Shown one piece after another: positions 21,584-64,000 of a DNA stretch of 64,000 bases (position 1 is its first letter; each line of letters begins with the position of its first letter). Position numbers and translations under genes: made by a program. The stretch is from Proteobacteria bacterium UBA981 (GTDB lineage: Bacteria; Pseudomonadota; Gammaproteobacteria; Ga0077536). The notes under the pieces were generated by a model that made no database searches, was not told where the DNA came from, and saw only the letters and a program-made list of their open reading frames with translations. The stretch lies in assembly GCA_002292285.1 (NCBI GenBank), contig DBBP01000002.1, positions 133,214 to 197,213 on the forward strand, written 5' to 3'.

Positions 21584-21595
21584 GGTGGCTTTACC

Positions 21596-21672: not shown

Positions 21673-21692
21673 AGCGTGCCCTGGAAGGCGCG

Positions 21693-25977: not shown

Positions 25978-26010
25978 CGCACAAGTCCTCGAGATCTCAT
26001 TCGTTACCGC

Positions 26011-26664: not shown

Positions 26665-26678
26665 GAGCTTACCTCTAT

Positions 26679-27995: not shown

Positions 27996-28074
27996 GGGTA
28001 AACCGAATCTATAGTGCAAATGTAGCCCCGCGACAGTCGCGGAGGCATCAATTCGCTGTTGAACATTTATGGAT

Positions 28075-28159
<85 letters not shown>

Positions 28160-28410
28160 GGCTGCCGAACCATAATTAGAACGTCGCCCAGGCCCCTGAA
28201 ACCAGGCCCGGAGTGCCGTTACCAGCGCCGATGATCAAGAGCCAGCGAGCCCTTGCCGCGGGCGGCGGCGCGCACTGGCGGGCGCCATTATAGGTGCAGC
28301 CTCAACACGTTGGTAGCCCCGCAATTGCCCGCCAAACTGCGCTTGCATACTATACTGGCCAGCGCGAACCGACTGATGTTGGGACGCTCCCACAAATTGA
28401 GGTGCGACCG

Positions 28411-28890: not shown

Positions 28891-28902
28891 TCCCCCGACA
28901 GT

Positions 28903-29349
28903 TTGTTACTGGCCGTGTTTAATTCGTCAATCGATGCTGAAGCGGCATTTTACGCCGCCTTTAGCAACGCCGATATTGATGCCATGGCCGCTATCTGGAT
29001 GCCGGGATCAGATGCAATCTGCGTTCATCCCGGCGGCCCGCGTCTATGCGGTCTGGACGCAATACGCCAGAGCTGGTCACTGATTCTGAGCGATTCGATG
29101 CCGCGGCAGTTCGAACTCCGTGGGCGCCTCATTATCGGCTCCGGTGATTGCCGCATTCACACTCTTGAGGAAAACATCAGTGTACCCGGGACCGAATTCG
29201 TCGCGCCGCCGGTGCTGGCGACGAATATTTATCAAAAACATCGGGATGGCTGGTTGATGGTGCTACATCACGCCAGTGTGTCTCCAGAATCAGTCGCGGA
29301 CACGAAAGATACCGACAAGCCGCGCCATTCATCGCAGGTTCTGCATTAG
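28903..29349 (+). CDS. NTF2-like (SnoaL/DUF4440-type) small protein
   Basis: 148 aa; AEAAFYAAFSNADIDAMAAIW is the typical SnoaL-like N-terminal helix. Start codon uncertain (TTG 28903 or GTG 28915). Confidence 0.45.
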   Translation: MLLAVFNSSIDAEAAFYAAFSNADIDAMAAIWMPGSDAICVHPGGPRLCGLDAIRQSWSLILSDSMPRQFELRGRLIIGSGDCRIHTLEENISVPGTEFVAPPVLATNIYQKHRDGWLMVLHHASVSPESVADTKDTDKPRHSSQVLH

Positions 29350-29478
29350 ACCAAATTGAGACGACGACGACGGTAACCCAGGTTGGGTGCCGCTTGGCGG
29401 TTTCGCAATATCCTGCGCTAGGATTACGTCGGGAGTCGCGCGATCAAAGTTCGGAATTCTTCAATCCAACGAGAAAAT

Positions 29479-29554
<76 letters not shown>

Positions 29555-29612
29555 GCTAAAGCGGAAGGTATCTCGGCAATTCGCTCGTGAAATTGCTGAA
29601 ATATTTATTTAG

Positions 29613-29689
29613 TGGGGTGGACGATGGGGTTCGAACCCACGACATCACGGACCACAACCGTGTGCTCTACCAACTGAGCTACGCCCACC
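29613..29689 (-). tRNA. tRNA-His (GTG) with encoded G-1
   Basis: Reverse complement G-GTGGGCGTAGCTCAGTTGGTAGAGCACACGGTTGTGGTCCGTGATGTCGTGGGTTCGAACCCCATCGTCCACCCCA. The extra 5' G pairs with discriminator C73, the histidine identity element. Confidence 0.85.
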
Positions 29690-29796
29690 ATAGGACTAAA
29701 ATGCTTGGATTGAACAGCAACCGCGTTCGGTGCGAGCTAGCCGCTCACCCTGCCACAGTAACGTGCAATCCGTCACTCGAGCCAATCTTCATAGAT

Positions 29797-29873
29797 TGGC
29801 GCGCCTGGCAGGATTCGAACCTGCTACCCTCGGCTTAGAAGGCCGATGCTCTATCCATATGAGCTACAGGCGC
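29797..29873 (-). tRNA. tRNA-Arg (TCT)
   Basis: Reverse complement GCGCCTGTAGCTCATATGGATAGAGCATCGGCCTTCTAAGCCGAGGGTAGCAGGTTCGAATCCTGCCAGGCGCGCCA; anticodon loop CUUCUAA. Confidence 0.85.
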
Positions 29874-29941
29874 ACGACATCGGACGCCTGAACGTGACAC
29901 CCTGCAAGTACAAGTTTAAACCTTGCGACTGCCAACTCAAA

Positions 29942-30018
<77 letters not shown>

Positions 30019-49485: not shown

Positions 49486-52131
49486 ATGGCAGAAGCTGAC
49501 AGCGACCCGCAAGAGACACAAGAATGGCTTGAAGCTCTGGACGCGGTGATCGACGTCGAGGGGGTTGAACGCAGCCACTATCTGCTCGAGAAACTCATCG
49601 ACCAGGCACGCCGCTCGGGCGTCAACTTGCCCTACTCTGCCAAGACCGCCTACATCAACACAATCCCACCGCAACGTGAAGTCTACACACCCGGCAACCC
49701 CGAACTCGAATGGCGAATTCGTTCGATCAATCGCTGGAACGCGATGGCGATGGTGGTCAAAGCAAATCTGCACAACAGTGAACTTGGTGGTCACATAGCG
49801 AGCTACGCCAGTGCAGCTACCTTGTACGAAGTTGGTTATAACCACTTCTGGCACGCTCCCAGCGCCGACCACGGTGGTGACCTGGTGTTTTTTCAGGGCC
49901 ACTCGGCGCCTGGAATCTACGCGCGAGCGTTTTTACTCGGGCAGCTCGACGAACAGCAACTGAACAATTTTCGCCAGGAAGTCGATGGCGGCGGGCTGTC
50001 GTCGTACCCCCATCCGTGGCTGATGCCGGGCTTCTGGCAATTCCCCACAGTGTCGATGGGCCTCGGCCCAATCATGGCGATTTATCAGGCGCGCTTCATG
50101 CGCTATTTGCAGAACCGGGAACTCGTACAGAGCCCGCAACGTAAAGTCTGGGCTTTCATGGGCGACGGCGAGATGGACGAGCCGGAAGCTTTCGGCGCTG
50201 CCGCGCTGGCTTCGCGGGAGAAGCTCGACAATCTGGTCTTTGTCATCAATTGCAATTTGCAGCGCCTCGACGGTCCGGTGCGCGGCAACGGCAAAATCAT
50301 CCAGGAGCTCGAATCTGATTTTCGCGGCGCCGGTTGGAACGTGATCAAAGTCATTTGGGGTTCAGCCTGGGATCCGCTGCTGGCGAAAGACGCTAAGGGT
50401 TTGCTCCAGGACCGTATGGAAGAATGCGTCGACGGCGAATACCAGGCCTACAAAGCGTTTAACGGTGGCTACGTGCGCGAACATTTCTTCGGCAAATATC
50501 CCGAGTTGAAGGCGATGGTCGCGAGCATGAGCGACGATGATATTTGGCGCCTCAATCGCGGCGGTCACGACCCCCATAAAGTCTACGCGGCCTACGCCGA
50601 GGCGGTCGCGCACACCGGCCAACCGACCGTCATCCTGTGCAAAACCGTCAAGGGTTACGGCATGGGCGAGGCCGGCGAAGGCAAGAACATCACACACGGC
50701 CAGAAGAAGATGGGCCTTGATGCACTCAAACACTTTCGCGATCGTTTCAATATTCCGGTCGCTGACGAAATCATTGCCGACGCGCCGTACTACAAACCAG
50801 CCGAAGACAGTGACGAGATGCGCTATTTGCGCGAGCGTACTGAAGCACTCGGTGGCTTTCTGCCACAGCGTCGTACCCATGCCGAACCGCTCACGATTCC
50901 CGATATCTCGATCTTCGACAATCTCCTGGCAGGCTCAGGTGAACGTGAGTTGTCGACCACCATGGCTTTTGTGCGTCTGCTCAATGCGCTGGTCCGGAAC
51001 AAGGAAATCGGCCCGCGCGTGGTCCCCATCGTGCCGGACGAAGCGCGCACCTTTGGCATGGAAGGGATGTTCCGCCAGCTCGGAATTTATTCGGCCGTCG
51101 GGCAACTGTATGAGCCGATGGATCATGATGAATTGATGTACTACCGCGAGGACATCAAAGGACAGATCCTCGAGGAAGGCATCAACGAGGCAGGTGGCAT
51201 GTGCTCGTGGATTGCTGCGGCGACGGCCTATTCCAGTCACAACCTGCAGATGATTCCATTCTTCATCTACTACTCGATGTTTGGTTTTCAACGCATTGGT
51301 GATCTCGCCTGGGCGGCCGGCGATATGCAGGCACGCGGATTTTTGCTCGGTGGGACAGCGGGACGTACAACCCTCGCCGGCGAAGGGCTCCAGCATCAGG
51401 ACGGCCACAGTCACATTCTCGCCGCGACCATTCCTAACTGCGTCAGCTATGACCCCGCGTTTGGCTACGAACTCGCGGTCATTGTGCATTACGGCATGAA
51501 GCGCATGTTCGAGCGGCAGGAGAACGTGTTTTATTACCTCACTGTGATGAACGAAAACTATGCCCACCCCGCCATGCCGGACGGCGTTGAAGACGCGATA
51601 GTAAAAGGCATGTATCTGTTTCGCAGTGACGCTGGTGCACAGGTGCAATTGCTAGGTAGCGGCACCATTCTGCGCGAGGTGCTCGCGGCTGCGGATCTTC
51701 TGGCGGCAGATTTCGGCGTTAGCGCCAACGTCTGGAGCGTAACCAGTTTCAATGAGCTGTTACGCGACGGACTCGAGTGTTCGCGTTGGAACATGCTGCA
51801 TCCCGCCGAGGCGCCGAAAGAAAGCTATGTGACCGGTCAACTGAGCCCGCATCGCGGTCCGTGTGTCGCGGCGACGGATTACATCCGCGCTTACGCTGGG
51901 CAGATCCGGGAATACGTACCGGGGCGTTATAGCGTGCTCGGTACGGATGGATTCGGGCGCTCGGACTCGCGCGCAAAATTGCGTGCCTATTTCGAGATCG
52001 ACCGCCACTATGTTGTCGTCGCCGCCCTGAAGGCGCTCGCGGACGACGGCGATATCGATATACAGCTGGTTGCCGATGCTATCAGCCGCTATGGCATCGA
52101 CGCAGACAAACCCAACCCAATGAGTCAGTAG
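49486..52131 (+). CDS. aceE: pyruvate dehydrogenase E1 component
   Basis: 881 aa; homodimeric E1 (AceE-type) collinear along its full length, thiamine-diphosphate GDG motif region. Confidence 0.95.
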   Translation: MAEADSDPQETQEWLEALDAVIDVEGVERSHYLLEKLIDQARRSGVNLPYSAKTAYINTIPPQREVYTPGNPELEWRIRSINRWNAMAMVVKANLHNSELGGHIASYASAATLYEVGYNHFWHAPSADHGGDLVFFQGHSAPGIYARAFLLGQLDEQQLNNFRQEVDGGGLSSYPHPWLMPGFWQFPTVSMGLGPIMAIYQARFMRYLQNRELVQSPQRKVWAFMGDGEMDEPEAFGAAALASREKLDNLVFVINCNLQRLDGPVRGNGKIIQELESDFRGAGWNVIKVIWGSAWDPLLAKDAKGLLQDRMEECVDGEYQAYKAFNGGYVREHFFGKYPELKAMVASMSDDDIWRLNRGGHDPHKVYAAYAEAVAHTGQPTVILCKTVKGYGMGEAGEGKNITHGQKKMGLDALKHFRDRFNIPVADEIIADAPYYKPAEDSDEMRYLRERTEALGGFLPQRRTHAEPLTIPDISIFDNLLAGSGERELSTTMAFVRLLNALVRNKEIGPRVVPIVPDEARTFGMEGMFRQLGIYSAVGQLYEPMDHDELMYYREDIKGQILEEGINEAGGMCSWIAAATAYSSHNLQMIPFFIYYSMFGFQRIGDLAWAAGDMQARGFLLGGTAGRTTLAGEGLQHQDGHSHILAATIPNCVSYDPAFGYELAVIVHYGMKRMFERQENVFYYLTVMNENYAHPAMPDGVEDAIVKGMYLFRSDAGAQVQLLGSGTILREVLAAADLLAADFGVSANVWSVTSFNELLRDGLECSRWNMLHPAEAPKESYVTGQLSPHRGPCVAATDYIRAYAGQIREYVPGRYSVLGTDGFGRSDSRAKLRAYFEIDRHYVVVAALKALADDGDIDIQLVADAISRYGIDADKPNPMSQ

Positions 52132-52148
52132 AGGCTGGCCCCCGACAC

Positions 52149-52710
52149 ATGAGTGAAATCGAAATAAAGGTCCCGGATATCGGCGATTTCGATGTTGTCG
52201 ACGTCATTGAGGTGCTGGTCAAACCTGGCGACGTGGTTGCGCTCGAAGATCCTCTCATCACGCTCGAAAGCGACAAAGCCACCATGGACATCCCGGCACC
52301 CCAGCCTGGCGAGGTGGTGTCTATACTCGTGAGTGTGGGCGATCGGGTGGGTGAAGGGACCGTCATCATCACACTGCGCAGCGCTGCCGATGCAGCGTCG
52401 ACGGCAGTGTCGGAAAGCGCACCGTCTGCTCCCATCGCTGTTCCCTCCGCCAGCCCGGCTAGCGCGACCTTGTTTGAAGTTCGAGTACCGGACATCGGCG
52501 ACTTCGACGCTGTTGATGTGATCGAGATTATTGCCCAAGCCGGAGCAGCCGTGGCTCTGGAGGATCCATTGCTCACGCTCGAAAGCGACAAAGCGACGAT
52601 GGACATCCCGGCCCCCGCAGCCGGTATTGTTGCCAGCATTGACGTCGTCGTCGGTGACAAAGTCCGCGAAGGCGACCTTATTGCAACGCTCACTGTAGAG
52701 ACTGAAAACG
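52149..52710. repeat. internal tandem duplication encoding the two lipoyl domains of aceF
   Basis: DNA-level direct repeat: 52243-52300 (GAAGATCCTCTCATCACGCTCGAAAGCGACAAAGCCACCATGGACATCCCGGCACC) versus 52557-52614 (GAGGATCCATTGCTCACGCTCGAAAGCGACAAAGCGACGATGGACATCCCGGCCCC). Confidence 0.7.
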
Positions 52711-53711
52711 CTGCGCAACCGGCCTCGCCAGTTGAGGTTCCGCGCGCCCCTGCTTCAATCCCGAAGAGCCCCACGCGAGTCGAGACGCCGCCGCTGCCTG
52801 CCAAGTCCAATAAAGCCTACGCCAGTCCGTCCATTCGCAAGTTTGCGCGTGAACTTGGCGTCGATATCGCGCTTGTTTATGGCACCGGCAATAAGAGTCG
52901 CATCCTCAAAACCGATGTGCAGGCGCATGTCAAAGAGGTCATGCGTGGCACGCGCGGGCAGGCAGCGGGTAGTTTTGCGCTGCCCGCGGCGCCTACGATT
53001 GATTTCACTAAGTTCGGCTCGGTCGAAGTCACGCCGCTCAACAAAATCAGAAAACTCACGGGGCAGAATTTACATCGCAGCTGGATCACCGCACCGCATG
53101 TGTTCCAGATGGACGAAGCCGACATTACTGAGCTTGAAGCGTTCCGTAAATCGAAAGCCGATGAAGCCGAACAAAAAGGCGCCAAGCTGACTTTGCTAAC
53201 CTTTCTGGTCAAAGCGGTCGTTGTGGCACTGAAGAAATTTCCGGACTTTAACGCTTCGCTGTCACCGGATGGTGAAGCCCTGATTCACAAGCAGTACTTC
53301 CACATTGGCATCGCAGTGAATACCGAAAACGGATTGATGGTGCCGGTGATACGCGATGTCGACAATAAGGGGCTCTACGAGATCGCACTTGAAGTACGCG
53401 AGTTATCGACAAAAGCGCGCTCGAGAAAAATCAGCCCGGCAGAAATGCAAGGCGCGTGCTTCACGATTTCGAGTCTCGGTGGTGTCGGCGGGACGGCGTT
53501 TACGCCAATCATCAACCTGCCCGAAGTCGGCATACTCGGCATTTCGCCGTCAGCCATGAAGCCAGTCTGGCGCGGCAGCGAATTCGTCCCGCGCCTGATG
53601 CTGCCGTTCACTTTATCTTACGACCATCGCGTCATCGATGGCGTCGCGGCAGCGCAATTTACCCGCTATCTAACCACCGTGCTGGGCGATATCCGGCACA
53701 TTCTGTTGTAA
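52149..53711 (+). CDS. aceF: dihydrolipoyllysine-residue acetyltransferase (PDH E2) with two lipoyl domains
   Basis: 520 aa; two lipoyl domains (LESDKATMDIPAP twice), E3-binding domain (AYASPSIRKFARELGVD), catalytic DHRVIDG. Confidence 0.9.
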   Translation: MSEIEIKVPDIGDFDVVDVIEVLVKPGDVVALEDPLITLESDKATMDIPAPQPGEVVSILVSVGDRVGEGTVIITLRSAADAASTAVSESAPSAPIAVPSASPASATLFEVRVPDIGDFDAVDVIEIIAQAGAAVALEDPLLTLESDKATMDIPAPAAGIVASIDVVVGDKVREGDLIATLTVETENAAQPASPVEVPRAPASIPKSPTRVETPPLPAKSNKAYASPSIRKFARELGVDIALVYGTGNKSRILKTDVQAHVKEVMRGTRGQAAGSFALPAAPTIDFTKFGSVEVTPLNKIRKLTGQNLHRSWITAPHVFQMDEADITELEAFRKSKADEAEQKGAKLTLLTFLVKAVVVALKKFPDFNASLSPDGEALIHKQYFHIGIAVNTENGLMVPVIRDVDNKGLYEIALEVRELSTKARSRKISPAEMQGACFTISSLGGVGGTAFTPIINLPEVGILGISPSAMKPVWRGSEFVPRLMLPFTLSYDHRVIDGVAAAQFTRYLTTVLGDIRHILL

Positions 53712-53868
53712 CAACAGCAATTGGGGCTGGCGGCCCGAAACTAAGTTGATCTGCGCTTGAGGGCAACGGCCGGGTTGGGCTGCAATCGCAGACCAGCGAT
53801 TAGCACCTCAGCTTGAGCGGTGCCACAATGACGTCCCCCTCATTGCTCATTCGGGAGGCGCACGGCCC

Positions 53869-55074
53869 ATGCCTGCATTAACTGGTCTTAGAGTCCTTGA
53901 TCTCACCCAATGGGAGGCCGGCACGTCCTGCACCCAGGCACTGGCGTGGATGGGCGCCGATGTGGTCAAGATTGAGCCGTTCACGACGGGCGATCCAGGT
54001 CGCGGAGTTGGTGACTCGTCGGATTATTTCCTGAATTGGAACGCGAACAAACGTAGCGTCGAACTCAATCTGCGCGATCCGCGCGGTCGCCAGTTGCTAC
54101 TCGATCTCGCACCCCGCTTCGATGTATTTATCGAAAATTTTGGACCGGGGGTCGTCGAGAAGCTCAATATCGGCTACGACGTCGTGAAAGCATTACACCC
54201 GCAAATTATCTACGCGCAATTGAAGGGCTTCGGCCTCACTGGGCCCTATGCCCATTACAAATGTTTTGACATGGTCGCGCAGTCAGCCGCCGGCGCGCTT
54301 TCAGTAACCGGCGCTCCCGACGGCCCGCCGCAGCGGCCCGGCCCGACGTTGGGGGATTCAGGCACGGGGGTGCAGATGGCGCTTGCGGTCACTGCCGCCT
54401 ACGCCCAGAAACTTCGCGACGGTACCGGCCAGCACATTGAATTGTCGATGCAGGAAGCGGTCACCTACTACATGCGTTCGATGGTTGCGCTCGGGGCGGA
54501 TGGTGGCAAAGCCGTTGCGCCGCGGCTTGGCAACGATCTCGGCCCGACTATCTCTCTGCACGCGTGCAAACCATTTGGCGCTAACGATTACGTCTACGTG
54601 ATGACCGCAACAGAACCGCAGTGGGTGACGCTCTGTAAGGCGATTGGGCGGCCGGAGCTCGCCGCTGACCCGCGTTTCGCTGATGCGGACTCAAGAACAG
54701 TACATGAAGCGGAGATCAAGGCAGTGCTGGCAGCGTGGATGGCTGAACACACAAAGCACGAGTCCATGAAGATCTTGTGCGATGCGGGCGTCCCGGCCAG
54801 TGCCGTTCTCGACACCGTCGATCTGTTCGCCGACCCGCACCTGAATGAGCGTGACTTCGTCAAACGTTTGCCTGCCGACCAGGGTGACAAGGAGATCGCG
54901 TTGCTTGGGTGGCCAATACGATCGTCGTCCGGAGAGGTGCCGATCAGTCGCGCGCCGGGTCTCGGCGCACACAGCGCCGAGATTATGCGCACCGAACTCG
55001 GTTTGTCGGAAGACGAGATCGCAAACCTGCTGAACGATGGCGTCATTGGCGCGACGAGTTTAATCGGGCGCTAG
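53869..55074 (+). CDS. CoA-transferase family III (CaiB/BaiF) protein
   Basis: 401 aa; LTGLRVLDLTQWEAGTSCTQALAWMGADVVKIEP N-terminus, catalytic Asp region, typical of family III CoA-transferases. Confidence 0.8.
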   Translation: MPALTGLRVLDLTQWEAGTSCTQALAWMGADVVKIEPFTTGDPGRGVGDSSDYFLNWNANKRSVELNLRDPRGRQLLLDLAPRFDVFIENFGPGVVEKLNIGYDVVKALHPQIIYAQLKGFGLTGPYAHYKCFDMVAQSAAGALSVTGAPDGPPQRPGPTLGDSGTGVQMALAVTAAYAQKLRDGTGQHIELSMQEAVTYYMRSMVALGADGGKAVAPRLGNDLGPTISLHACKPFGANDYVYVMTATEPQWVTLCKAIGRPELAADPRFADADSRTVHEAEIKAVLAAWMAEHTKHESMKILCDAGVPASAVLDTVDLFADPHLNERDFVKRLPADQGDKEIALLGWPIRSSSGEVPISRAPGLGAHSAEIMRTELGLSEDEIANLLNDGVIGATSLIGR

Positions 55075-55121
55075 AAAAACCAATCGGCAATCGTGGCGAG
55101 CGCGCCCGCCATCCGCCGCCT

Positions 55122-56138
55122 CTAGGCCAGTTTGATTATCCGTTTACCAAGATTTTCGCCGCGATAAAGGCTCGCAATGGAATCCGGCGCGTGCTCGATA
55201 CCTTCCGCGATCTCCTCGCGGTATTGAATCAATCCATTGCGTACCCAAGGGGTCAGGGCTGCCAGCGCTTCGTGGTAGCGCGCCGCATAATCGAATATCA
55301 CGAAGCCCTGCATACGCGCGCGACGGGTCAGCAAAATGCGTTCAGCACGTGGACCGAGTGGCGCCGGGTCCCAGTTCGAAACCGACGCTGTGCCACAGAT
55401 CACCACCCGTGCGCCGACATTCAGATGGCGTAGCACGGCATCGGAAATAGCACCTGCAGTGTTATCAAAATAGACATCAACGCCGGCGGCACAAGTGGTT
55501 GTCAAGGCCGCATCAACATCTTCAGACTTGTAATCTATGGCTGCCGCGAAACCGAATTCATCGGTGCAGATCTGCTTCTTGGCTTCCCCACCCGCGATGC
55601 CAACCGTTCGACACCCCATAATGTTGGCGATTTGACCGACGCACGATCCAACCGAGCCCGCTGCCGTTGAGACGACGACGGTCTCCCCAGGACGCGGCTG
55701 TCCAACCTCCAACAGACCAAAATAGGCAGCCAGCCCGTTAATGCCAAGCACCCCGAGTGACGTCGATAAGGGCAGGTCAGGGTCCGCAACCTTGCGCTCG
55801 ATCTGTGCTGCATCAATCGTCGCGTAGTCCTGCCAACCGAACATGCCTTTGACGAACTCACCGCGCTCATAGCCGGGTAGGTTGCTCGCCTCGATTCGGC
55901 CAACCGTAAGCGAACGCATGACCTCACCAATCCCTACTGGTTGGGAGTAGTTTCCGACGTCGGCAACCCAACCGCGCATCGCCGGTTCAACGGACAGGTA
56001 CAGATTGCGCACCAGTAGTTGCTCAGTACCAGGCTGCGATATCGGACCGTCGACAATCTCGAAATGTTCCGCCTGCGGTATGCCGGTGGGACGAGATTTG
56101 AGTAAGACCTGACGATTGCCTGCAACACTCATACGCAA
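55122..56138 (-). CDS. NADP-dependent oxidoreductase (MDR superfamily, YncB/CurA/prostaglandin-reductase-like)
   Basis: 338 aa; GETVVVSTAAGSVGSCVGQIA nucleotide-binding motif, overall MDR fold. Confidence 0.8.
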   Translation of the reverse strand: MRMSVAGNRQVLLKSRPTGIPQAEHFEIVDGPISQPGTEQLLVRNLYLSVEPAMRGWVADVGNYSQPVGIGEVMRSLTVGRIEASNLPGYERGEFVKGMFGWQDYATIDAAQIERKVADPDLPLSTSLGVLGINGLAAYFGLLEVGQPRPGETVVVSTAAGSVGSCVGQIANIMGCRTVGIAGGEAKKQICTDEFGFAAAIDYKSEDVDAALTTTCAAGVDVYFDNTAGAISDAVLRHLNVGARVVICGTASVSNWDPAPLGPRAERILLTRRARMQGFVIFDYAARYHEALAALTPWVRNGLIQYREEIAEGIEHAPDSIASLYRGENLGKRIIKLA

Positions 56139-56280
56139 TAACTCCGCTTGTTGGATACGACTGCGCGCAGTCTAACCGCTAGAGGCGTGTGAGCGCAGTG
56201 AATCACAGCCCTGCCGCGTCGTTTTCTGGTCCATGGCAGTTGTTCAATCAACACGTCCGGCAGGGACAGGCCGGCGTTCC

Positions 56281-57587
56281 TTACTCCTCGCTAAGGTCGA
56301 TCTCGGTCTCCGGATGAATGCCGAGCCAGCACAACCCGGCGAGCAGACTGAGCACACCCATCACTGACAATGCAGTTTGCCAGTCGTAAGTTTGGGCGAT
56401 ATATGGCGTCAGGGTGGGTGAAACAGTGCCACCCAGATTCCCCCCCATGTTCATAAACCCGGAGATCGTCCCGGCGTACGTGCGGGATAAATCAATAGTC
56501 ACTGCCCAGAAAGACGAGACGCTCAAATACAGTGCGCCGAGGCTGAGCGACAACATCACCACGGCAATCACAGCGTCCTCAATACTCGCGCCAACCAGCA
56601 ACAACAGACCGGTCAGGGTCATGCTCACGAAGCCGAGTCCGCAGCGCCCGGCACGCTGACCGTAGCGTTGACACAAACGGTCACTCAGCCAGCCACCGAA
56701 TGGGCCGGCGACTGCGCAGGTAAGGAACGGCGCCATGGTGTAGAAGCCGCCGCTGGTCACAGAAAAGCCCCGTTCGTTAACCAGATACAAATAAAACCAT
56801 GCGAAATAAAAATACACGATGTAACCCAGCACCACGTAGGCCGCGGTCAATAGCCATAAGTCACGCGCGCCAAACAGCTTGCGCCACGGTACTTTCAGAC
56901 CGAGTGCCGCTGCTGCCCGTGTCGCCTCGGCGTCGATATCGATCAAATCACGCTCGGCCGCGTTAGTCCGCGGATGTTCAGCGGGCGTATCGGTACTCAG
57001 CCAGTACCACAGTACGGCCACCAGCACGCCGGCGGCGCCAGAAATATAGAAGGCCTCGCGCCAGCCCCAGGTGATCATGATCCAGACAATCAGCGGTGGC
57101 GTTAGCGCCGCACCCAGCGAGGTGCCGCTAATGGCGATTCCCAGGGCAAATGCACGCTCGTTGGGAGCGGCCCAGTTGGCCACGATGCGGTTGCCGTTTG
57201 GCGGGGCTGCTGCTTCGCCAAGGCCGGTCAGAATTCGCACGATTGCGAACGACCCGACGACCCCGAACATTGACGCCAGGAATAACTCACCTGCGACAGC
57301 TGTTACGGCAGTAAAAACCGACCACCAGATGATTGCCCAGGTCATCACTCGCCGAGGCCCGAACCGATCGCCGAGCCAGCCGCCCGGAATTTGTGCGAGC
57401 GCGTAACCGAGCACGAAGGCACTGAAGATCCAACCAAACTCAACTTCGCTGAGCCCGTACTCGGGCATGATGAATTTCGCGGCGATAGAAATGTTCACCC
57501 GATCGATGAACATCAGCACATAGATTAGAAATACCAGGCCAACGATCTGCCAGCGCACGCTGGTCGGTGATTGCGGTTCGGTCATTG
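56281..57587 (-). CDS. MFS transporter
   Basis: About 435 aa from the internal start MTEPQSPTSVRWQIV; 12 TM helices; MFS motif-A-like GWLGDRFGPRR. Confidence 0.75.
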
Positions 57588-57752
57588 CCAGATTCTCGTT
57601 GCGGGGCTGGACGTTGTGCTCAGTATGCGCGAGGAGCGACTGCGGCGCAGCAAAAAATGGCCCTGACCTGAACGTCGGGATAGTATCGGGTCGACACACC
57701 AGCGGCTTCGAGAGGACACGACTTCGGGTCCGGAGCACGCTGTCAACACCTT

Positions 57753-58775
57753 ATGGGGAGCCAGGCTTTGGACAATTTGGGCATCGGTATTTCTTACGAC
57801 TTTCGTAATCCACCTGACTCCGGCGTCAGTGATCAGCGCCTGTACGAAGAAATCCTGTCACAGGTGCAATGGCTAGACCAGCTGGGCGCCGATTTGGTCT
57901 GGTTCACTGAGCATCATTTCGTCGACGACGGCTATTTACCCAGTTGGGTGCCAGTTGCCGGCGCCATGGCAGCGATGACCGAACACGTCCGTTTCGGCAC
58001 CGATATTTGTCTGATGCCGTTTAATCACCCATTGCGCCTCGCCGAAGACCTCGCGGTACTCGACAACCTGTCCAATGGCCGTATCGAACTCGGTCTGGGT
58101 ATGGGCTACGCGCCGCACGAGTTCCGCGGCTTCGGCATACCGGTCAGCCACCGCGTATCGCTGACCAACGAGGGCATCGAAGTGCTGCAACATTGTTTCC
58201 GGGGTGAGCGCTTTAGTTATCACGGCAAACGCTATCAGTTCGATGACGTCAAAATAACACCCGGCTATGTTCAACCGGGCGGGCCGCCGCTGTGGATAGC
58301 TGCAATGTCTGAAGCCGGTGCCCTGCGCGCCGCTCATTACGACACCCACTTTTTGCCGCAAGGATCAGTGGAGGGGGTATTCAACCCGTGGGTGAATGCC
58401 TTGCAGAACAGCGGTCGTAAACCGGGCGATTATCGGGTCGGGGTTATTCGCAGCATTCTTGTCACCGATGACCGTGATACGGATTGGCCCATCGTACGCG
58501 CCGCCGAGCGCTACCGCATGGAACTGTACAAACGTTTTTTCAAAGAAAGCGGCGAAGGTTTTGGCGAACCCAGCGAAGCGCTACCGCAGACGTGGATTGT
58601 CGGCGACGTCGATCATTGCGTGAATGAGCTCAAGACCTTCATTAATACCTTCGGGATCACAGACATCGTCTCCATGGCCGTGCCCCCAGGGCTTCGCGCC
58701 GAGCAAATGTCGAGTAGTCTTGAACGCTTGTTTCGCGAGGTGGTTCCACGGCTGAAGGCTGAGCTCGCAGCTTGA
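57753..58775 (+). CDS. LLM-class flavin-dependent oxidoreductase (luciferase-like monooxygenase)
   Basis: 340 aa; TIM-barrel LLM signatures (LWFTEHHF, GRIELGLGMGY). Confidence 0.75.
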   Translation: MGSQALDNLGIGISYDFRNPPDSGVSDQRLYEEILSQVQWLDQLGADLVWFTEHHFVDDGYLPSWVPVAGAMAAMTEHVRFGTDICLMPFNHPLRLAEDLAVLDNLSNGRIELGLGMGYAPHEFRGFGIPVSHRVSLTNEGIEVLQHCFRGERFSYHGKRYQFDDVKITPGYVQPGGPPLWIAAMSEAGALRAAHYDTHFLPQGSVEGVFNPWVNALQNSGRKPGDYRVGVIRSILVTDDRDTDWPIVRAAERYRMELYKRFFKESGEGFGEPSEALPQTWIVGDVDHCVNELKTFINTFGITDIVSMAVPPGLRAEQMSSSLERLFREVVPRLKAELAA

Positions 58776-58842
58776 TTTCGCAATCACCAATAATCACACC
58801 GCACCGCCCGGCACAGCGACCCAGACTCAAGCCGGGGATACC

Positions 58843-60642
58843 GTGCTGATGCAGAACGCAAGCGAGGACTCGCGTGTGACTCGCTTCCAGACCATGGTCG
58901 AGATGTCAGATGGCGTGCGCCTGAACACATTCGTATTTCTTCCTGCCGCCGGCGGACCACGCTTCCCCGTCATCGTGCAACGCACCCCCTACGGCATCAC
59001 GGCGTCACAAAGCGTCGACCCGCAAGATTGCACTCGAGCCTGGCTACCGACCGCCGAGCGACCACTGGGTGGCTCAATTTTACGTGGCTGGGAGCAGATC
59101 ACAGCTCACGGTTACGCGGCGGTCTATCAGGACACGCGTGGCCGCCATGGTTCCGAGGGAGAAGATCGTGTCTACGCTGATGACGCCGACGATGGGCATC
59201 AGACATTAGCCTGGACCGCCGCGCAACCCTGGTGCAATCAGTACGTCGGCGTGTCCGGATCATCGGCCGGCGCGACCACGGCAATGGCCGCAGCGTCGCG
59301 CCGTCATCCATCCTTGCGCGCGATGTTCGTGCAGGTCGGCGGATCGAGTATTTACGACGATGTCGTCTACGAGGGCCAGTCGATTGAGCTGGAACGGCTG
59401 TGGTTGTGGGTGGGTCGCAATCTCGCCGGGCTCTCGGCACCGCATCGCGACATTGTCATGCAGCGGCTCGGATTGAGTAGCGAACAAATGGACGCCACAG
59501 CGAAGGCCGCCATGGCGCGTTGCGAGTCGCTCGAGGCTACGGTGAACGATGCGACAGCGTTTACGGACAACCCGGCGTGGATGCATTTGCCGCTATCTGG
59601 TTACCCGGACTTCAGCATCGGGCAACCGTGGCTTGATGAAATCATCACACACCCCGGCCCGGACGAATTCCGCGCGCAGCACAATTTTCGCCGCACCATC
59701 GATGTCCCCGGACTACATGCAACAACCTGGTTCGATATATTCCAGACTAGCGTGATCGCCGCTTTCAATGACATCCAGGGACGCGTCGGTAATCAGCAAT
59801 TGTGGATTGCGCCGAACGACCATTTCGCAATCTACCGTGAGAACTTCTGGCCACACGATCCGTATTTCGAATGGTTCGACCATTGGTTAAAGGGCAAGCC
59901 GAATGATCTCGTCGCCCGCCCATCGGTGCACTATAGTCCGCGTGCCTGGGTCGACGACCCCGATACTTACCAAGCCACCGATTGGCGCTACACCGAGCGC
60001 TGGCCACCCGCGGGAAGCCGCCCGGCGCGACTTTATCTGTGCAGCGACGGCAGTCTGTGCAGCGAATCGCAGGATGGCGAGCCACGCAGCTTTCGCTACG
60101 ACCCACGGCACCCTGTCACGACCTGTGGTGGGCGTAACATGCTCATAGCTGCCGGTCCGCTCGATCAAAGTTCGTTGTACGCGCACCATGACTACGGCCT
60201 CTGCTATCGCGGTTCGCCGCTCGAACGTGAGGTCACTCTGGCTGGCGAGGTTCGGGTCACCCTGAACGTGCAATCGGATTGCCCCGATACTGACTTTGTC
60301 GCCAAGTTGATTCAATGCGAGCCCGATGGCAACGCACGATTGTTGATGGATGGCGTGATACGCACCATGTATCGCGAACCAGCCTTGGGCGCGCAGCCGC
60401 TCACGGCCGGCAGCACCTGTGTCGTCACTATCCACCTTGCCCACATCTATCACACCGTGCCGGCGGGCTGCCGCATGCAAATAGACATCACCAGCAGTAA
60501 CTTCCCACGCCGTGCGCGCAACACGAATAGCGGAAATCCGGTTTTGGCATGCGATAGTCCTAGCGATATTCGGGTAGCAACCAACACCGTCCTGCATTCG
60601 AATCACAATCCGTCTTACGTGACCTTGCCGGTTCTCGCTTAA
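58843..60642 (+). CDS. CocE/NonD family hydrolase (S15 X-Pro dipeptidyl-peptidase-like alpha/beta hydrolase)
   Basis: 599 aa; nucleophile elbow GVSGSSAG, long cap and C-terminal beta-sandwich region typical of CocE/NonD. Confidence 0.75.
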   Translation: MLMQNASEDSRVTRFQTMVEMSDGVRLNTFVFLPAAGGPRFPVIVQRTPYGITASQSVDPQDCTRAWLPTAERPLGGSILRGWEQITAHGYAAVYQDTRGRHGSEGEDRVYADDADDGHQTLAWTAAQPWCNQYVGVSGSSAGATTAMAAASRRHPSLRAMFVQVGGSSIYDDVVYEGQSIELERLWLWVGRNLAGLSAPHRDIVMQRLGLSSEQMDATAKAAMARCESLEATVNDATAFTDNPAWMHLPLSGYPDFSIGQPWLDEIITHPGPDEFRAQHNFRRTIDVPGLHATTWFDIFQTSVIAAFNDIQGRVGNQQLWIAPNDHFAIYRENFWPHDPYFEWFDHWLKGKPNDLVARPSVHYSPRAWVDDPDTYQATDWRYTERWPPAGSRPARLYLCSDGSLCSESQDGEPRSFRYDPRHPVTTCGGRNMLIAAGPLDQSSLYAHHDYGLCYRGSPLEREVTLAGEVRVTLNVQSDCPDTDFVAKLIQCEPDGNARLLMDGVIRTMYREPALGAQPLTAGSTCVVTIHLAHIYHTVPAGCRMQIDITSSNFPRRARNTNSGNPVLACDSPSDIRVATNTVLHSNHNPSYVTLPVLA

Positions 60643-60693
60643 CTGACTTTGCGAGGGCAACGTCCATCTTCTCGATCCCAATCAGGAGCTACC

Positions 60694-61914
60694 ATGACTC
60701 AGGAAAATGAACACGTACTCAGCGGCTTACGCGTACTCGATCTCACTCGCGCACTTGCCGGCCCGACCTGTACTCGCATGTTCGCCGAGATGGGCGCAGA
60801 TGTGATCAAAGTCGAATCGGCGCCCAACGGCGACATGACTCGGCAGATATCGAAAATACGCAATGAACGCAGCATGTATTTCGTGCAGCAGAATCTCGGC
60901 AAAAAAAGTCTTTGTGTTGATCTGCGCGATCCACGCGGCATGGCCTTGGTGACTTCACTGGTGCCCAAAGTCGACGTCGTCGTAGAAAACTTCAAACCCG
61001 GTACGCTGGCCGCGATGGGCCTCGGTTACGAGCGTTTACGCGAGATGCGCGAAGACATCATCCTGTGTTCGATATCCGCCATGGGGCAATCCGGCCCGCT
61101 GTCGGGGCTGCCCGGTTACGACTTCATCGCACAGGGCTATTCGGGGGTGACTTCGATGATTGGTGATGCGGATGGCACGCCACACATCCCGCCGCTCGGC
61201 CTGGGTGATGTGAGTACCGGTGTGCACGGCGCGTTAGCGGTGTTGGCAGCGTTGCGCTATCGGGACCGAACAGGCAAAGGCCAGCATCTCGACGTCGGCC
61301 TGCTCGACGTTTACTACCACTGCAATGAAGTCACCGTACACCAGTGCAGTGGCAGTGACGGCGAACTCAAACCCAGCCGGCAGGGCCCGCATCTGAATTA
61401 CATTTGCCCCGCCGGCGTATTCAAAGCCAATGGAGGGTGGGTTGTGATCATGGCGTTCCTGCACCACTGGAAAGATCTGTGCAGCGCGATGCAGCGCCCC
61501 GATTTAATTGACCACGAAACCCTCGGCAACGACACCGGGCGCCTCGCGAACCGTGCAGAGGTGGTCGAACTGCTGGAATCCTGGCTGGCCGGCTTCCCCG
61601 ATCGGGACAGCGCGATTGACGCCCTGCACGCCCACGGCGTGCCGGCAGCACCAGTATTGTCCATCGAAGAAACTCTGACTCACCCCCACCTGCAAGCACG
61701 CAAAACCGTGCGCACGATTAACGACCGTCTAACCGGCGAATTTCAAATCCCCGGCATGCCGCTCAAGTTCTCGGAGTTCCCCGATGATCTGCCCCTACAG
61801 GCTGCAACGATGGGCGAGCACAACGCTGACATTCTGCGCGAGTGGCTTGGCCACAGCGATGATGAGATCGCACAGCTACGCGCGGCTGGCGTGCTGCACG
61901 ACGCCGAAATTTAG
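60694..61914 (+). CDS. CoA-transferase family III (CaiB/BaiF) protein, second copy
   Basis: ATG 60694 with AGGAG SD; LSGLRVLDLTRALAGPTCTRMFAEMGADVIKVES N-terminus, paralogous to the 53869-55074 product. Confidence 0.8.
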   Translation: MTQENEHVLSGLRVLDLTRALAGPTCTRMFAEMGADVIKVESAPNGDMTRQISKIRNERSMYFVQQNLGKKSLCVDLRDPRGMALVTSLVPKVDVVVENFKPGTLAAMGLGYERLREMREDIILCSISAMGQSGPLSGLPGYDFIAQGYSGVTSMIGDADGTPHIPPLGLGDVSTGVHGALAVLAALRYRDRTGKGQHLDVGLLDVYYHCNEVTVHQCSGSDGELKPSRQGPHLNYICPAGVFKANGGWVVIMAFLHHWKDLCSAMQRPDLIDHETLGNDTGRLANRAEVVELLESWLAGFPDRDSAIDALHAHGVPAAPVLSIEETLTHPHLQARKTVRTINDRLTGEFQIPGMPLKFSEFPDDLPLQAATMGEHNADILREWLGHSDDEIAQLRAAGVLHDAEI

Positions 61915-62002: not shown

Positions 62003-62680
62003 CTAGATAATTTGCCGCCAGGTCTCCAGATCTTCGACCTGTAGATAAGGGTTCTGGGCTTTCGTATCGCCCATCGACGCACTCGGCTGATGACCGTAGT
62101 TATGTCCTGGCAACAACAGGGTATCGTCCGGCAGGGCTTTCAATTTAGCCATGCTGTGATACATGTCTTCCTTGTTCGAGCCGGGCAAATCCACTCGACC
62201 GCAGCCGTTAATAAACAAAGTATCGCCGGACACCAGGGTGTTCTGGACGCGAAAGCACTGCGAGCCTGGCGTATGTCCGGGTGTATGAAGGAACTCGATT
62301 TCAACCTCGCCGACTTTCAGTGTGTCGCCGGAATCCACTTGTACGAGATCGGTCTCGGAAACGCCGGTCACTTTGCACACACCACTCGCCTCATGCTTGT
62401 TGGCGTAAATCCGCACCGGGTTCGCGGCCAGTAATTCGGGCAAGCCGATGACGGTGTTGGTACCGAAACTACCGCCGATGTGATCTGGGTGGTAGTGAGT
62501 GACCAAAGCGCCTCTGAGGATGTAGCCCGCGTTGTTCACCCGTTCGAGTAACGCATCGATATCCCAAGCAGGATCGACAATCACGACTTCACGCGTGCTG
62601 CGCGAACCAATGACGTAGCAAAAATTCTGCATCGGGCCAATTTGAATTTGCTCGACAATTAATTCACTTTCGGCTTCCAT
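62003..62680 (-). CDS. MBL-fold metallo-hydrolase (glyoxalase II / persulfide dioxygenase-like)
   Basis: 225 aa; THYHPDHIGG metal-binding motif, HTPGHTPG. Confidence 0.75.
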   Translation of the reverse strand: MEAESELIVEQIQIGPMQNFCYVIGSRSTREVVIVDPAWDIDALLERVNNAGYILRGALVTHYHPDHIGGSFGTNTVIGLPELLAANPVRIYANKHEASGVCKVTGVSETDLVQVDSGDTLKVGEVEIEFLHTPGHTPGSQCFRVQNTLVSGDTLFINGCGRVDLPGSNKEDMYHSMAKLKALPDDTLLLPGHNYGHQPSASMGDTKAQNPYLQVEDLETWRQII

Positions 62681-62809
62681 GGCATTCCCTGTGCACTATC
62701 AACGAGCATCGACAGTTAGTTTAACGTGAGGTATGAAGACGCGGCCGGGGTCATTCAACTCTAGTCGCAGAATGAATGCTTGAACTGCACCCGCGTGGTC
62801 GCGAGAAAG

Positions 62810-63226
62810 CTATGCCGCAGACGCTGCGGTGTGGACTACCGCAGCGACGAACTTCCAGCCACCGCCGGATTTACGCAACGTGTATTTGGCACCTGTGCGC
62901 TCGAGTTCGGAGCCACTGCTGTCAAACCGTACTGCAATTCCAGAGACTTCCGCGAGGCGGTCGCTTAACATCTCGACAGTCAATTCTCGAACGTCTGAAT
63001 GGTCGTAGTCACGCGCTTGAAGCCCGCTGATAATTGTTTCAAACAGGTTCCTGACCTCATCCTCGCTGGAGAACGAGAGAACGACCTCGTCGCTGATGAA
63101 AAGACACGGTGGCGCATAAAATGGCGCCACTAACTCCGCGCGCTGGGTATGGAAAGCGGACAGGTATTGGGCGTATACATCACGAATCGCCGCCTCTTCA
63201 GCACCGTTCCCCGCTATCAGAGTCAT
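62810..63226 (-). CDS. NTF2-like (DUF4440/SnoaL-type) protein
   Basis: 138 aa; N-terminal EAAIRDVYAQYLSAF helix typical of SnoaL-like folds. Confidence 0.45.
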   Translation of the reverse strand: MTLIAGNGAEEAAIRDVYAQYLSAFHTQRAELVAPFYAPPCLFISDEVVLSFSSEDEVRNLFETIISGLQARDYDHSDVRELTVEMLSDRLAEVSGIAVRFDSSGSELERTGAKYTLRKSGGGWKFVAAVVHTAASAA

Positions 63227-63253
63227 CGGTATCGACGGTCCGCAAAGCCAGTC

Positions 63254-63476
63254 TTACGGCTTAAGACCGAGTACGCAGTGCTTGGTATACGCAGCTGCAT
63301 CGTCGCCGTTCCATTCGCCCTTGGGCTTGTCATTCATCATCGTGCACCAGTCTTCGCTGCCGACTTTTGGTGAACATCCACTCACCAGTACGCCGACCGC
63401 AATTACAGCCAATGTGGCGCGCAAAAGACGTGCAGTCTCGCGCAGACTTGAAACTATGTTATTCATCGTTGATTCC
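63254..63476 (-). CDS. DUF3012-like small lipoprotein
   Basis: 74 aa taken from the internal start MNNIVSSLR; lipobox LVSGCS; conserved EDWCTMMNDKPKGEWNGDDAAAYTKHCV. The track ORF carries a long Arg-rich 5' extension that is probably not translated. Confidence 0.5.
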
Positions 63477-63503
63477 GTCCTGTCAGTTTGCGTTAGTACG
63501 ACG

Positions 63504-63926
63504 TTAGTAACGTGGCACTTCTGGATCGATATGCTGCGACCACGCATCAATCCCGCCGGCGAGATTAAACACGTTGGTAAAACCCTGGGTGCGAAAGTAT
63601 TCGGCTGCTGATTGGCTGCGCATGCCCGAGTGACATTGAAAAACCAATAGCGCATCGCGCGCAAGCGTATCAATCGCCTTGACCGCTTCTTCGTCGAGCA
63701 TTTGCGACCCTTCAATGCACGCGATGTCGCGCTCTGCTTGTTCTCGGACATCGAATAAATGGACTGACTCCCCTGCGTCCATGTGTGCTTTCAATTCTTG
63801 CACCGACATCTGCGGCACTGGCGCGGGCGCGTTCGGGTTGCTGATACTGAAACCGGAACCCTGTGGGGTTTCTGTCATGTCGAGACTGAGGCCGTCGGCG
63901 CGCGCGGCCGAATCAAGGTCGAACAA
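63504..63926 (-). CDS. rhodanese-like domain protein (sulfurtransferase); start uncertain
   Basis: Active-site loop CHSGMRS; single rhodanese domain probably beginning at MSVQELKAHMDAG (63809); the longer ORF adds a 39-aa low-complexity N-terminus. Confidence 0.65.
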   Translation of the reverse strand: MFDLDSAARADGLSLDMTETPQGSGFSISNPNAPAPVPQMSVQELKAHMDAGESVHLFDVREQAERDIACIEGSQMLDEEAVKAIDTLARDALLVFQCHSGMRSQSAAEYFRTQGFTNVFNLAGGIDAWSQHIDPEVPRY

Positions 63927-64000
63927 AATATCGATACCGTTTGCGGCCCCGACAATTTCATGCCCCTTGGCGGGAGCCAGACTAAACTCGTGATTGAACG

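Follow-up and report, generated by a model that had tools for sequence, protein, structure and literature searches.

Six genes follow aceE and aceF in a 64,000-nt stretch of DNA (hereafter the window) from an uncultured, probably gammaproteobacterial organism: two family-III CoA-transferases (CoAT1 and CoAT2), an MDR oxidoreductase, an MFS transporter, a luciferase-like (LLM) oxidoreductase, and a CocE/NonD hydrolase. Do these genes constitute one dedicated catabolic pathway, as the first-pass annotation proposed when it described a single coherent catabolic island, or are they neighbors with separate pasts? Our analysis supports the first-pass annotation in part. The enzymes are of the families claimed, but the orthologs are scattered in relatives at every adjacency tested, and the block genes have separate evolutionary histories. 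On this basis, we consider it more likely than not, at roughly 60%, that three or more distinct transcription units came to lie side by side within a core chromosomal region of this one species and that they form no conserved dedicated pathway.

Gene Content and Enzyme Families

All six open reading frames were verified by ORF and domain searches and by alignments; their catalytic residues are intact, and JGI's independent annotation of the source contig gives the same coordinates (table 1). The Pfam and NCBIfam domains are those described in the first-pass annotation, the family matches of the six genes and of aceE/aceF lie far beyond chance, and the generic chemistry attributed to the block (anion uptake, ene-reduction, flavin-dependent oxidation, ester/amide hydrolysis, and CoA transfer) is right. 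None of the six genes reaches the cut-off of a function-specific model.

Table 1. Features of the block and its flanks, in window coordinates.
Feature	Position	Strand	Basis
aceE and aceF, pyruvate dehydrogenase E1 and E2 (core-genome flank, outside the block)	49486-53711	+	TIGR00759, 1494 bits; TIGR01348, 609 bits
CoAT1, family-III (CaiB/BaiF) CoA-transferase, 401 aa	53869-55074	+	PF02515, E=5e-100
MDR-superfamily NADPH oxidoreductase, CurA/YncB/PTGR1 type (alkenal/enone double-bond reductase), 336 aa	55122-56132	-	PF16884 and PF00107
MFS transporter, anion:cation symporter (ACS) type, 434 aa	56281-57585	-	PF07690, E=1e-68
Intergenic region between the divergent MFS and LLM genes, 167 nt	57586-57752		Sequence read
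LLM-class (luciferase-like) flavin-dependent oxidoreductase, 340 aa	57753-58775	+	PF00296, E=2e-51
CocE/NonD-family serine hydrolase, 597 aa	58849-60642	+	TIGR00976, 275.6 bits (cut-off 66.3); PF02129 and PF08530
TGG codon of the family-invariant Trp in TTWFDIFQ, two residues before the catalytic Asp	59728-59730	+	TAG in the sister strain
CoAT2, family-III CoA-transferase, 406 aa	60694-61914	+	PF02515, E=5e-105
GloB-like metallo-beta-lactamase-fold hydrolase, 225 aa (right flank)	62003-62680	-	PF00753, E=5e-21

The two CoA-transferases had been described as paralogs, and both indeed carry PF02515 over its full length (profile positions 1-365 of 366 in CoAT1 and 1-366 of 366 in CoAT2), but they are distant ones, 35% identical, with no recent duplication. 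CoAT1, which starts 157 nt past the aceF stop codon and converges with the MDR gene across a GC-rich palindrome, is probably monocistronic. Its best PDB match is YfdW (E=2e-65) and its top NCBIfam match is formyl-CoA transferase, and Frc Asp169 (LGDS) aligns with the LGDS motif of CoAT1 (alignment to 1p5h). The assignment of CoAT1 as Frc was nevertheless rejected because it falls below both Frc model cut-offs (317 bits vs. 442 for NF003809; 313 vs. 504 for TIGR03253) and lacks the Frc-specific insert, the alignment to Frc/YfdW splitting in two with about 25-30 residues missing. CoAT2 best matches 9br6 (SUGCT, the succinate-hydroxymethylglutarate CoA-transferase, a dicarboxylate enzyme; E=1e-63), misses all NCBIfam equivalog cut-offs (259 bits against the Frc model TIGR03253, under 504), and has its catalytic Asp in LGDV, at the position aligned to Frc Asp169. 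With the family-III dicarboxylate CoA-transferases (Frc/YfdW, SUGCT, succinyl-CoA:mesaconate, and succinate-glutarate), the block enzymes thus share PF02515 and the Asp in LGD(S/V), whereas the equivalog and subfamily cut-offs are widely missed (317 vs. 442, 253 vs. 700, and 235 vs. 750 bits).

The MFS gene, whose start codon was taken as in the JGI gene call, precedes the MDR gene on the minus strand, with 148 nt between them. The transporter scores 251.6 bits against TIGR00893, under the cut-off of 395, and is labeled "ACS family, glucarate transporter" by JGI. An N-terminal PF16884 domain, a Rossmann domain, and a full-length alignment to NF058644 liken the MDR protein to the CurA/YncB/PTGR1 NADPH-dependent alkenal/one reductases, but its 362.7 bits lie under the equivalog cut-off of 440, on which ground curcumin reductase CurA was rejected; the protein belongs to the broader set of MDR enzymes that bear PF16884.

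The MFS and LLM genes diverge across the intergenic region listed in table 1, an arrangement suggestive of shared regulation. The promoters of both units presumably lie there, and neither an inverted repeat, a sigma-70-like site, nor an Rfam match was found in it. In the LLM protein, the Bac_luciferase domain spans residues 21-299 (E=1.6e-51), and all NCBIfam sub-family models (F420- or FMN-dependent, SsuD, type II BVMO, etc.) remain below cut-off, the best being TIGR03619 with 122 bits against 167. Among solved structures, luciferase alpha chains come closest to it (E about 1e-23), and it has no specific similarity to diketocamphane-type or known type II Baeyer–Villiger monooxygenases (BVMOs). 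The hydrolase gene begins 73 nt after the LLM gene and ends 51 nt before CoAT2, all three on one strand, and this gene order likewise suggests coregulation.

The hydrolase shares PF02129 and PF08530, the triad, and the oxyanion Tyr with CocE of Rhodococcus sp. MB1 and with the alpha-amino-acid ester hydrolases of the CocE/NonD (S15) group. It conserves S117, D259, H287, and Y44 of cocaine esterase, with an intact Ser-Asp-His triad in the motifs GSSAG, WFD, and NDH, but it resembles CocE weakly (157 bits, E=5e-45) and belongs to a separate sub-family. This sub-family is large, strongly conserved (mean column identity of 77% in an alignment of 25 members), mostly from uncultured soil bacteria, and without a characterized member.

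Genomic Context of the Block

The block is flanked by ppsA, aceEF, and GST/thiol-type genes, and the aceE and aceF models both exceed their cut-offs. The first-pass annotation placed the block directly after aceF, where lpd sits in Escherichia coli. The first half of this statement stands, aceE and aceF being immediately upstream, but the missing lpd is no evidence of displacement, since Pseudomonas-type genomes normally have an aceEF operon that lacks lpd. To the right, the GloB-like gene is convergent with CoAT2; its product scores 110.6 bits against TIGR03413 (cut-off 200.8) and is 29% identical over 133 aa to the metallo-beta-lactamase protein that follows the closest CoAT2 orthologs, and its membership of the block is doubtful.

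No foreign signature was seen. The block has a GC content of 0.57-0.60 and a GC3 of 0.60-0.69, against a GC3 of 0.58-0.68 in the housekeeping genes of the window. The closest tRNA gene lies some 24 kb off, neither an integrase nor a transposase turned up in the few flanking ORFs that were scanned, and no inverted repeat bounding the block was detected in its intergenic regions. Plus-strand terminator-like sites were detected only at the ends of aceF and CoAT2. The block holds no riboswitch (Rfam), flavin reductase, or dehydrogenase gene, and no regulator gene lies in or beside it.

Gene Neighborhoods in Relatives

We surveyed synteny directly around relatives of four block genes, namely LLM, hydrolase, CoAT2, and MDR. 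The whole block is common only to strains about 98% identical in DNA (loci L092-L094). Orthologs of the LLM gene (77-82% identical) occur in seven different contexts (L086, L088, L090, L095, L096, L180, and L181), none of which holds an ortholog of any other block gene. Homologs of the hydrolase (55-68%) have heterogeneous neighbors at 77 loci, and their 146 immediate neighbors include only four LLM and four CoA_transf_3 proteins, none of them orthologous. Likewise, none of the CoAT2 relatives (54-81% identity; 27 loci checked, 18 with usable flanks) adjoins a hydrolase or LLM ortholog, and no MFS or CoAT1 ortholog lies near the MDR orthologs (76-80%), found at three loci in unrelated contexts. 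The first-pass annotation had considered that it would be overturned if the genes were scattered in relatives and individually annotated to unrelated known pathways: the scattering is what we found, but no ortholog has a known pathway.

The block genes also differ in where their relatives reside. LLM and MDR orthologs (76-82%) were found in MAGs labeled Gammaproteobacteria or Pseudomonadales, and the closest hydrolase and CoAT2 relatives in MAGs and metagenomes from soil, peat, and further non-marine settings. Soil MAGs commonly carry hydrolase homologs (55-68% identical), the closest of which lie mostly in MAGs labeled Alphaproteobacteria, Stellaceae, Binatia, or Acidimicrobiia, and the plasmid collection yielded none above about 30% identity.

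At the level of families, some associations recur. An (alpha/beta-hydrolase)-LLM-SDR-CoAT-CoAT cluster is conserved around CoAT2 orthologs of about 65% identity: in L106-L109, L113, L114, and L123, the CoAT2 orthologs have an LLM, an SDR, and two CoA-transferases around them, with or without the alpha/beta-hydrolase. A gene for an FMO-like monooxygenase, which the window lacks, comes after two of the three sampled MDR orthologs (L177 and L178), and in L178 this BVMO-type enzyme flanks the MDR ortholog together with an LLM and an Abhydrolase_1 protein. Directly upstream of two LLM orthologs lies a fused double CoA-transferase, and those of L096 and L180 stand beside CoA-transferase, ECH, thiolase, and ACAD genes. 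A weaker version of the proposal, in which LLM, hydrolase, and CoA-transferase chemistries are loosely linked in function, is possible, since the same families recur near CoAT2, MDR, and LLM orthologs. The recurring LLMs and hydrolases are, however, only 21-36% identical to those of the window or belong to other sub-families, and some co-occurrence is expected by chance because both families are among the most expanded in such genomes.

Decay of the Hydrolase Gene in a Sister Strain

In the closest sister strain, the hydrolase gene is a decaying pseudogene with still conserved neighbors. The codon of the invariant Trp is an amber TAG in both L092 and L093, which stem from two different sequencing runs, and the triad is lost through this stop two residues before the Asp. 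The sister-strain gene carries 16 other substitutions besides the amber codon; all 17 polarizable amino-acid differences are derived there, and eight of them strike family-invariant residues. Between the window and the sister strain, dN/dS reaches 0.335 in the hydrolase gene vs. 0.04-0.18 in the five other block genes (MDR, 0.04; MFS, 0.09; CoAT1, 0.18). The members of the block are therefore not all selected together: the flanking LLM (0.12) and CoAT2 (0.06) genes stay under purifying selection around a pseudogenized hydrolase, which is dispensable to its neighbors.

A Pathway, an Island, or Neighbors?

If the block were a recently assembled, genuine catabolic module for a carboxylate bearing an ester, lactone, or enone, which is essentially the model of the first-pass annotation, the MFS transporter would import the anion, the MDR enzyme would saturate a conjugated C=C bond, the LLM would oxygenate the product (possibly turning a ketone into an ester in Baeyer–Villiger fashion, as type II BVMOs do), the hydrolase would open the ester or lactone, and CoAT2 and/or CoAT1 would activate the acid so released for beta-oxidation. 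Gene orientation and the short gaps are in line with this route, as are the lack of a plus-strand terminator-like site from the LLM gene to the end of CoAT2, the family-level recurrence described above, the kept catalytic residues, and purifying selection on the five non-hydrolase genes; a recently assembled functional operon is also compatible with an absence of conserved synteny. We nonetheless regard it as possible but rather improbable: outside the species, no tested adjacency is conserved at the ortholog level, the loss of the hydrolase beside conserved LLM and CoAT2 genes is unexpected for an obligatory linear pathway, neither a regulator nor a flavin reductase is at hand, the LLM bears no specific likeness to diketocamphane-type BVMOs, and the recurring LLMs and hydrolases are remote from those of the window or of other sub-families, with some co-occurrence expected by chance. 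Alicyclic and terpenoid ketone pathways, such as those of camphor (with LLM-type diketocamphane monooxygenases), cyclohexanone, and dihydrocarvone degradation, combine a BVMO, a lactone hydrolase, and CoA activation. The block resembles them in logic only, with its ene-reductase, candidate flavin monooxygenase, candidate ester/lactone hydrolase, and CoA activation; it is not a member of this group, for its LLM is unlike type II BVMOs, flavin reductase and dehydrogenase are missing, and the arrangement is not conserved. We find it unlikely that LLM, hydrolase, and CoAT2 form a newly assembled operon for an undescribed ester/lactone degradation route, possibly with the divergent MFS-reductase unit supplying it.

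An altogether different account, in which the block is a genomic island that arrived by horizontal transfer and integrated behind aceF at the E. coli position of lpd, strikes us as highly improbable. Lateral acquisition of the hydrolase and CoAT2 genes could follow from the distance of the hydrolase homologs and the labels of their MAGs, and from the nearest CoAT2 relatives (as much as 81% identical) being on other metagenome contigs. However, GC and GC3 are indistinguishable from those of the flanking housekeeping genes, the flanking ORFs scanned include no mobility gene, an adjacent tRNA gene and bounding inverted repeats are lacking, nothing has been displaced, and the LLM and MDR orthologs in related gammaproteobacterial MAGs fit vertical descent.

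Under the juxtaposition that we favor, we infer three units and the individual chemistries of their products: CoAT1 alone; a minus-strand unit of MFS then MDR; and a plus-strand unit of LLM, hydrolase, and CoAT2, which may be a young operon. Each gene encodes an apparently functional, generically assigned enzyme of accessory metabolism. CoAT1 and CoAT2 would act as acyl-CoA:carboxylate CoA-transferases through their conserved Asp, presumably by the anhydride mechanism of their family; the MDR protein as an NADPH-dependent C=C reductase; the MFS protein as an organic-anion symporter; the LLM as a flavin-dependent oxidoreductase relying on a flavin reductase from another locus; and the hydrolase as a cytoplasmic Ser-Asp-His ester/amide hydrolase.

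Implications

Should a new ester/lactone route exist after all, an LLM-type oxygenase and a CocE/NonD hydrolase of an uncharacterized sub-family would work with a dicarboxylate-type CoA-transferase, and the sister strain would be a natural hydrolase knock-out. The natural inactivation of the hydrolase in a sister population offers a way to test its importance to its neighbors. As a by-product, the survey revealed that CoAT2 orthologs from other metagenomes, soil samples among them, lie within a truly conserved LLM-SDR-CoAT-CoAT cluster. If the patchwork reading holds, it calls for caution: where a genome abounds in paralogs of LLM, CoA-transferase, and alpha/beta-hydrolase genes, juxtaposition alone can mimic a pathway, and such plausible-looking neighborhoods do not warrant annotation as a catabolic island.

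Gene content and predicted activities

The first-pass annotation had placed six genes in the block at 53869-61914, and both the genes and the families named for them are borne out by the ORF listing and by profile searches, with coordinates identical to those that JGI called for the 229-kb metagenome contig from which the window derives. The two family-III CoA-transferases, CoAT1 and CoAT2, share only 35% identity and are the sole CoA-transferases in the 64-kb window.

Genes of the block, with family assignments from profile searches
Gene	Coordinates	Strand	Length (aa)	Family evidence
CoAT1 (CoA-transferase)	53869-55074	+	401	PF02515, E=5e-100
MDR reductase	55122-56132	-	336	PF16884/PF00107, curcumin-reductase-like
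MFS transporter	56281-57585	-	434	PF07690, nearest to the ACS/D-galactonate group
LLM oxidoreductase (luciferase-like)	57753-58775	+	340	PF00296
CocE/NonD hydrolase	58849-60642	+	597	TIGR00976, 275.6 bits vs cut-off 66.3
CoAT2 (CoA-transferase)	60694-61914	+	406	PF02515, E=5e-105

In the profile search, no block protein reached a function-specific NCBIfam cut-off, the broad CocE/NonD model excepted. The hydrolase can be aligned with cocaine esterase from end to end, and its nucleophile Ser (GSSAG), Asp (WFD), His, and oxyanion Tyr are all in place; its sub-family is very strongly conserved (mean column identity 77% in an alignment of 25 members), spans MAGs labelled Alpha-, Beta-, and Gammaproteobacteria, Binatia, and Acidimicrobiia, and includes no characterised member, nor did the plasmid collection hold a close homolog. 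Both CoA-transferases retain the Asp that matches Frc Asp169; the Frc-specific insert is absent from CoAT1, which is therefore not a formyl-CoA transferase. Among solved structures, CoAT2 is nearest to the dicarboxylate CoA-transferase SUGCT and the LLM to luciferase alpha chains (about 1e-23), the comparison giving no pointer to a specific LLM sub-family. Overall, the enzymes and the gene organisation of the block do not depart from known kinds.

The MFS and LLM genes diverge over 167 nt, a region in which no operator-type inverted repeat was found, and in the promoter/terminator scan promoter-like sites were rarer than in shuffled sequence. No regulator or flavin reductase lies in or beside the block, and no riboswitch was detected, the Rfam scan returning tRNAs only.

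Genomic surroundings

The block directly follows aceE and aceF; lpd does not come after aceF here, as is normal for genomes of the Pseudomonas type. At 3843-5192 (+), 45 kb from aceEF, lies the gene for a 449-aa pyridine-nucleotide-disulphide oxidoreductase that bears a dimerisation domain, resembles glutathione reductase or lipoamide dehydrogenase, and is a possible candidate for the missing E3. Further along, an Opp/Dpp-type ABC transporter run (8699-18336, -) encloses a fadB/fadA-like beta-oxidation pair (10349-13731), and seven tRNA genes (Asp and Val, 21507-21671; Leu, 28075-28159; Lys, His, Arg, and Pro, 29479-30018) have among them ORFs that fit tig-clpP-clpX-lon in size and order (22125-28019), ClpX alone being confirmed by the source annotation. 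Both stretches, 8699-18336 and 21507-30018, look like an ordinary core-genome region.

Downstream of the block, at 62003-64000 and beyond, the JGI calls give a minus-strand run of thiol/glutathione type comprising a GloB-like metallo-beta-lactamase-fold (MBL) protein, a DUF6841 (NTF2-like) and a DUF3012 protein, a glutaredoxin-rhodanese fusion, two GSTs, a cupin, an SDR, and a thiolase, which may form a sulfur or glutathione-dependent detoxification cluster.

Conservation of the block in relatives

The proposal of one coherent, conserved catabolic island is not supported by comparative genomics, in which orthologs of the hydrolase, LLM, CoAT2, and MDR genes are scattered among unrelated contexts. 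The block as such is present only in contigs that are 100% (L001-L005) or ~98% (L092-L094) identical to the window. Samples with this organism include JGI 3300072015, ERR9769276, and SRR5204266. Homologs of the hydrolase number in the thousands, the best ones outside the species reaching only 63-68% identity. We collected 77 loci with a usable hydrolase gene from species-representative genomes, mostly MAGs of soil Alphaproteobacteria, Stellaceae, Binatia, and Acidimicrobiia; tblastn of all block proteins against the fetched loci returned no ortholog of another block gene near the hydrolase homologs. Neighbour clustering over these 77 loci gave no dominant partner (the largest cluster covering 9 of 77), tight hydrolase-to-CoA-transferase adjacency occurred in only two of them (L077 and L079), and the 146 immediate neighbours, when sorted by Pfam family, included 6 lactonases, 5 TPP enzymes, 4 LLM proteins, 4 CoA-transferases, and 4 SDRs. 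When the plasmid collection was searched with the hydrolase by tblastn for annotated contexts in cultured organisms, homologs appeared only at ≤ ~30% identity.

The other anchors told the same story of dispersal. Gammaproteobacterial MAGs carry many LLM orthologs (77-82% identity), and the best LLM and MDR homologs are labelled Pseudomonadales or Gammaproteobacteria MAGs; among the seven LLM-ortholog loci inspected (L086, L088, L090, L095, L096, L180, L181) every neighbourhood was different, and all seven lacked orthologs of the other five block genes. None of the CoAT2 relatives obtained from the metagenome scan, at 54-81% identity, adjoins a CocE/NonD gene or an LLM ortholog, and MFS and CoAT1 orthologs are not found near the three MDR orthologs (76-80% identity). 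Between them, the hydrolase, LLM, CoAT2, and MDR anchors reach each junction inside the block. Nothing relevant came up when the full-text literature was searched for CocE/NonD hydrolase, luciferase-like monooxygenase, and CoA-transferase in combination.

Similar families nevertheless recur together elsewhere. The ~65% CoAT2 relatives lie in a conserved (alpha/beta-hydrolase)-LLM-SDR-CoAT-CoAT cluster (L106-L109, L114, e.g. L114:6919-12584, and L123), which looks like a real conserved operon distinct from the arrangement in the window, and LLM genes are also near the CoAT2 relative of L113. The closest CoAT2 orthologs, at ~80% (L097:5936-9187, L098:9542-12786, L105:9436-12748), have in common another conserved order, namely cupin, CoAT2, a 262-aa MBL-fold protein, and Zn_ribbon_8; that this MBL protein might be the counterpart of the one to the right of the block was rejected, since the two share only 29% identity over 133 aa and therefore belong to different sub-families. 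In two loci with MDR orthologs (77-80%; L177:10001-12521, L178:8729-12511), an FMO-like/Pyr_redox_3 monooxygenase of ~486 aa is encoded 25-38 nt after the reductase, a pairing that is conserved there but has no counterpart in the window; L178 also carries a divergent LLM and an alpha/beta-hydrolase. Finally, two LLM orthologs (80-81%) have directly upstream a fused double family-III CoA-transferase of 750-796 aa (L096:6929-11008, L180:7340-11011), in CoA/beta-oxidation contexts, with differing flanks on both sides. The architecture of these fusions recalls DddD-type tandem CoA-transferases; searched for DddD or another specific NCBIfam model, they gave generic matches only.

Decay of the hydrolase in a sister population

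In the ~98%-identical sister population, the hydrolase gene carries TGG -> TAG at window positions 59728-59730, as seen in two independent runs (ERR12117676, ERR9575718), and this amber codon stands where the family has an invariant Trp (TTWFDIFQ), two residues ahead of the catalytic Asp. When the 20 amino-acid differences between the strains were polarised against 24 homologs, all 17 informative ones were derived in the sister strain, and 8 of the sister-derived changes fall on invariant positions, one of them being the first Gly of the nucleophile motif GxSxG. Between the two strains, dN/dS is 0.335 for the hydrolase and 0.04-0.18 for the other five block genes. The sister-lineage hydrolase is thus decaying, and the adjoining LLM and CoAT2 are still under purifying selection, a pattern that speaks against LLM, hydrolase, and CoAT2 forming an obligatory pathway.

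The window hydrolase deviates at 16 of 227 positions that are invariant in the other members. Decay of this copy was considered and rejected, every polarisable substitution being derived in the sister and none in the window; the copy looks intact, its 16 deviations reflecting an outgroup branch position.

Over window 52259-61428, neighbouring genes differ more than five-fold in dS against the sister contig L092 (CoAT1 0.024, MDR 0.092, aceF 0.134), which suggests recombination between populations; the two gap openings reported there by blastn were resolved as mismatches by global alignment.

Alternative readings of the block

That the block is a foreign genomic island seems very improbable to us, as its GC (0.57-0.60) and GC3 (0.60-0.69) match those of housekeeping genes elsewhere in the window, no integrase or transposase occurs among the flanking ORFs scanned, and the nearest tRNA is ~24 kb away; the flanks themselves are core genes, with ppsA and aceEF upstream and the glutathione/thiol-type cluster downstream. 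A more serious rival, doubtful in our view, is a young lineage-specific operon for the catabolism of an ester, a lactone, or an enone-carboxylate. It is favoured by the same-strand order of LLM, hydrolase, and CoAT2, which are 73 and 51 nt apart, by the divergent placing of MFS and LLM, and by plus-strand terminator-like sites that occur only at the aceF and CoAT2 ends. The family-level recurrence around CoAT2, MDR, and LLM relatives lends it weak support, because families of the LLM and CoA-transferase type are highly expanded in such genomes and the partner genes are not orthologous to those of the window (LLMs 21-36% identical). Against it stands the sister population, where the hydrolase decays while LLM and CoAT2 stay conserved.

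Of the initial interpretation, which joined uptake, hydrolysis, oxygenation, and CoA activation in one island, the families and the generic chemistry hold, and the coherent conserved island is not supported, no ortholog-level adjacency having turned up in the relatives examined. On balance, the most likely reading, with a probability of about 0.6, is that three transcription units encoding generic enzymes of accessory metabolism would have come to lie side by side in this species alone.
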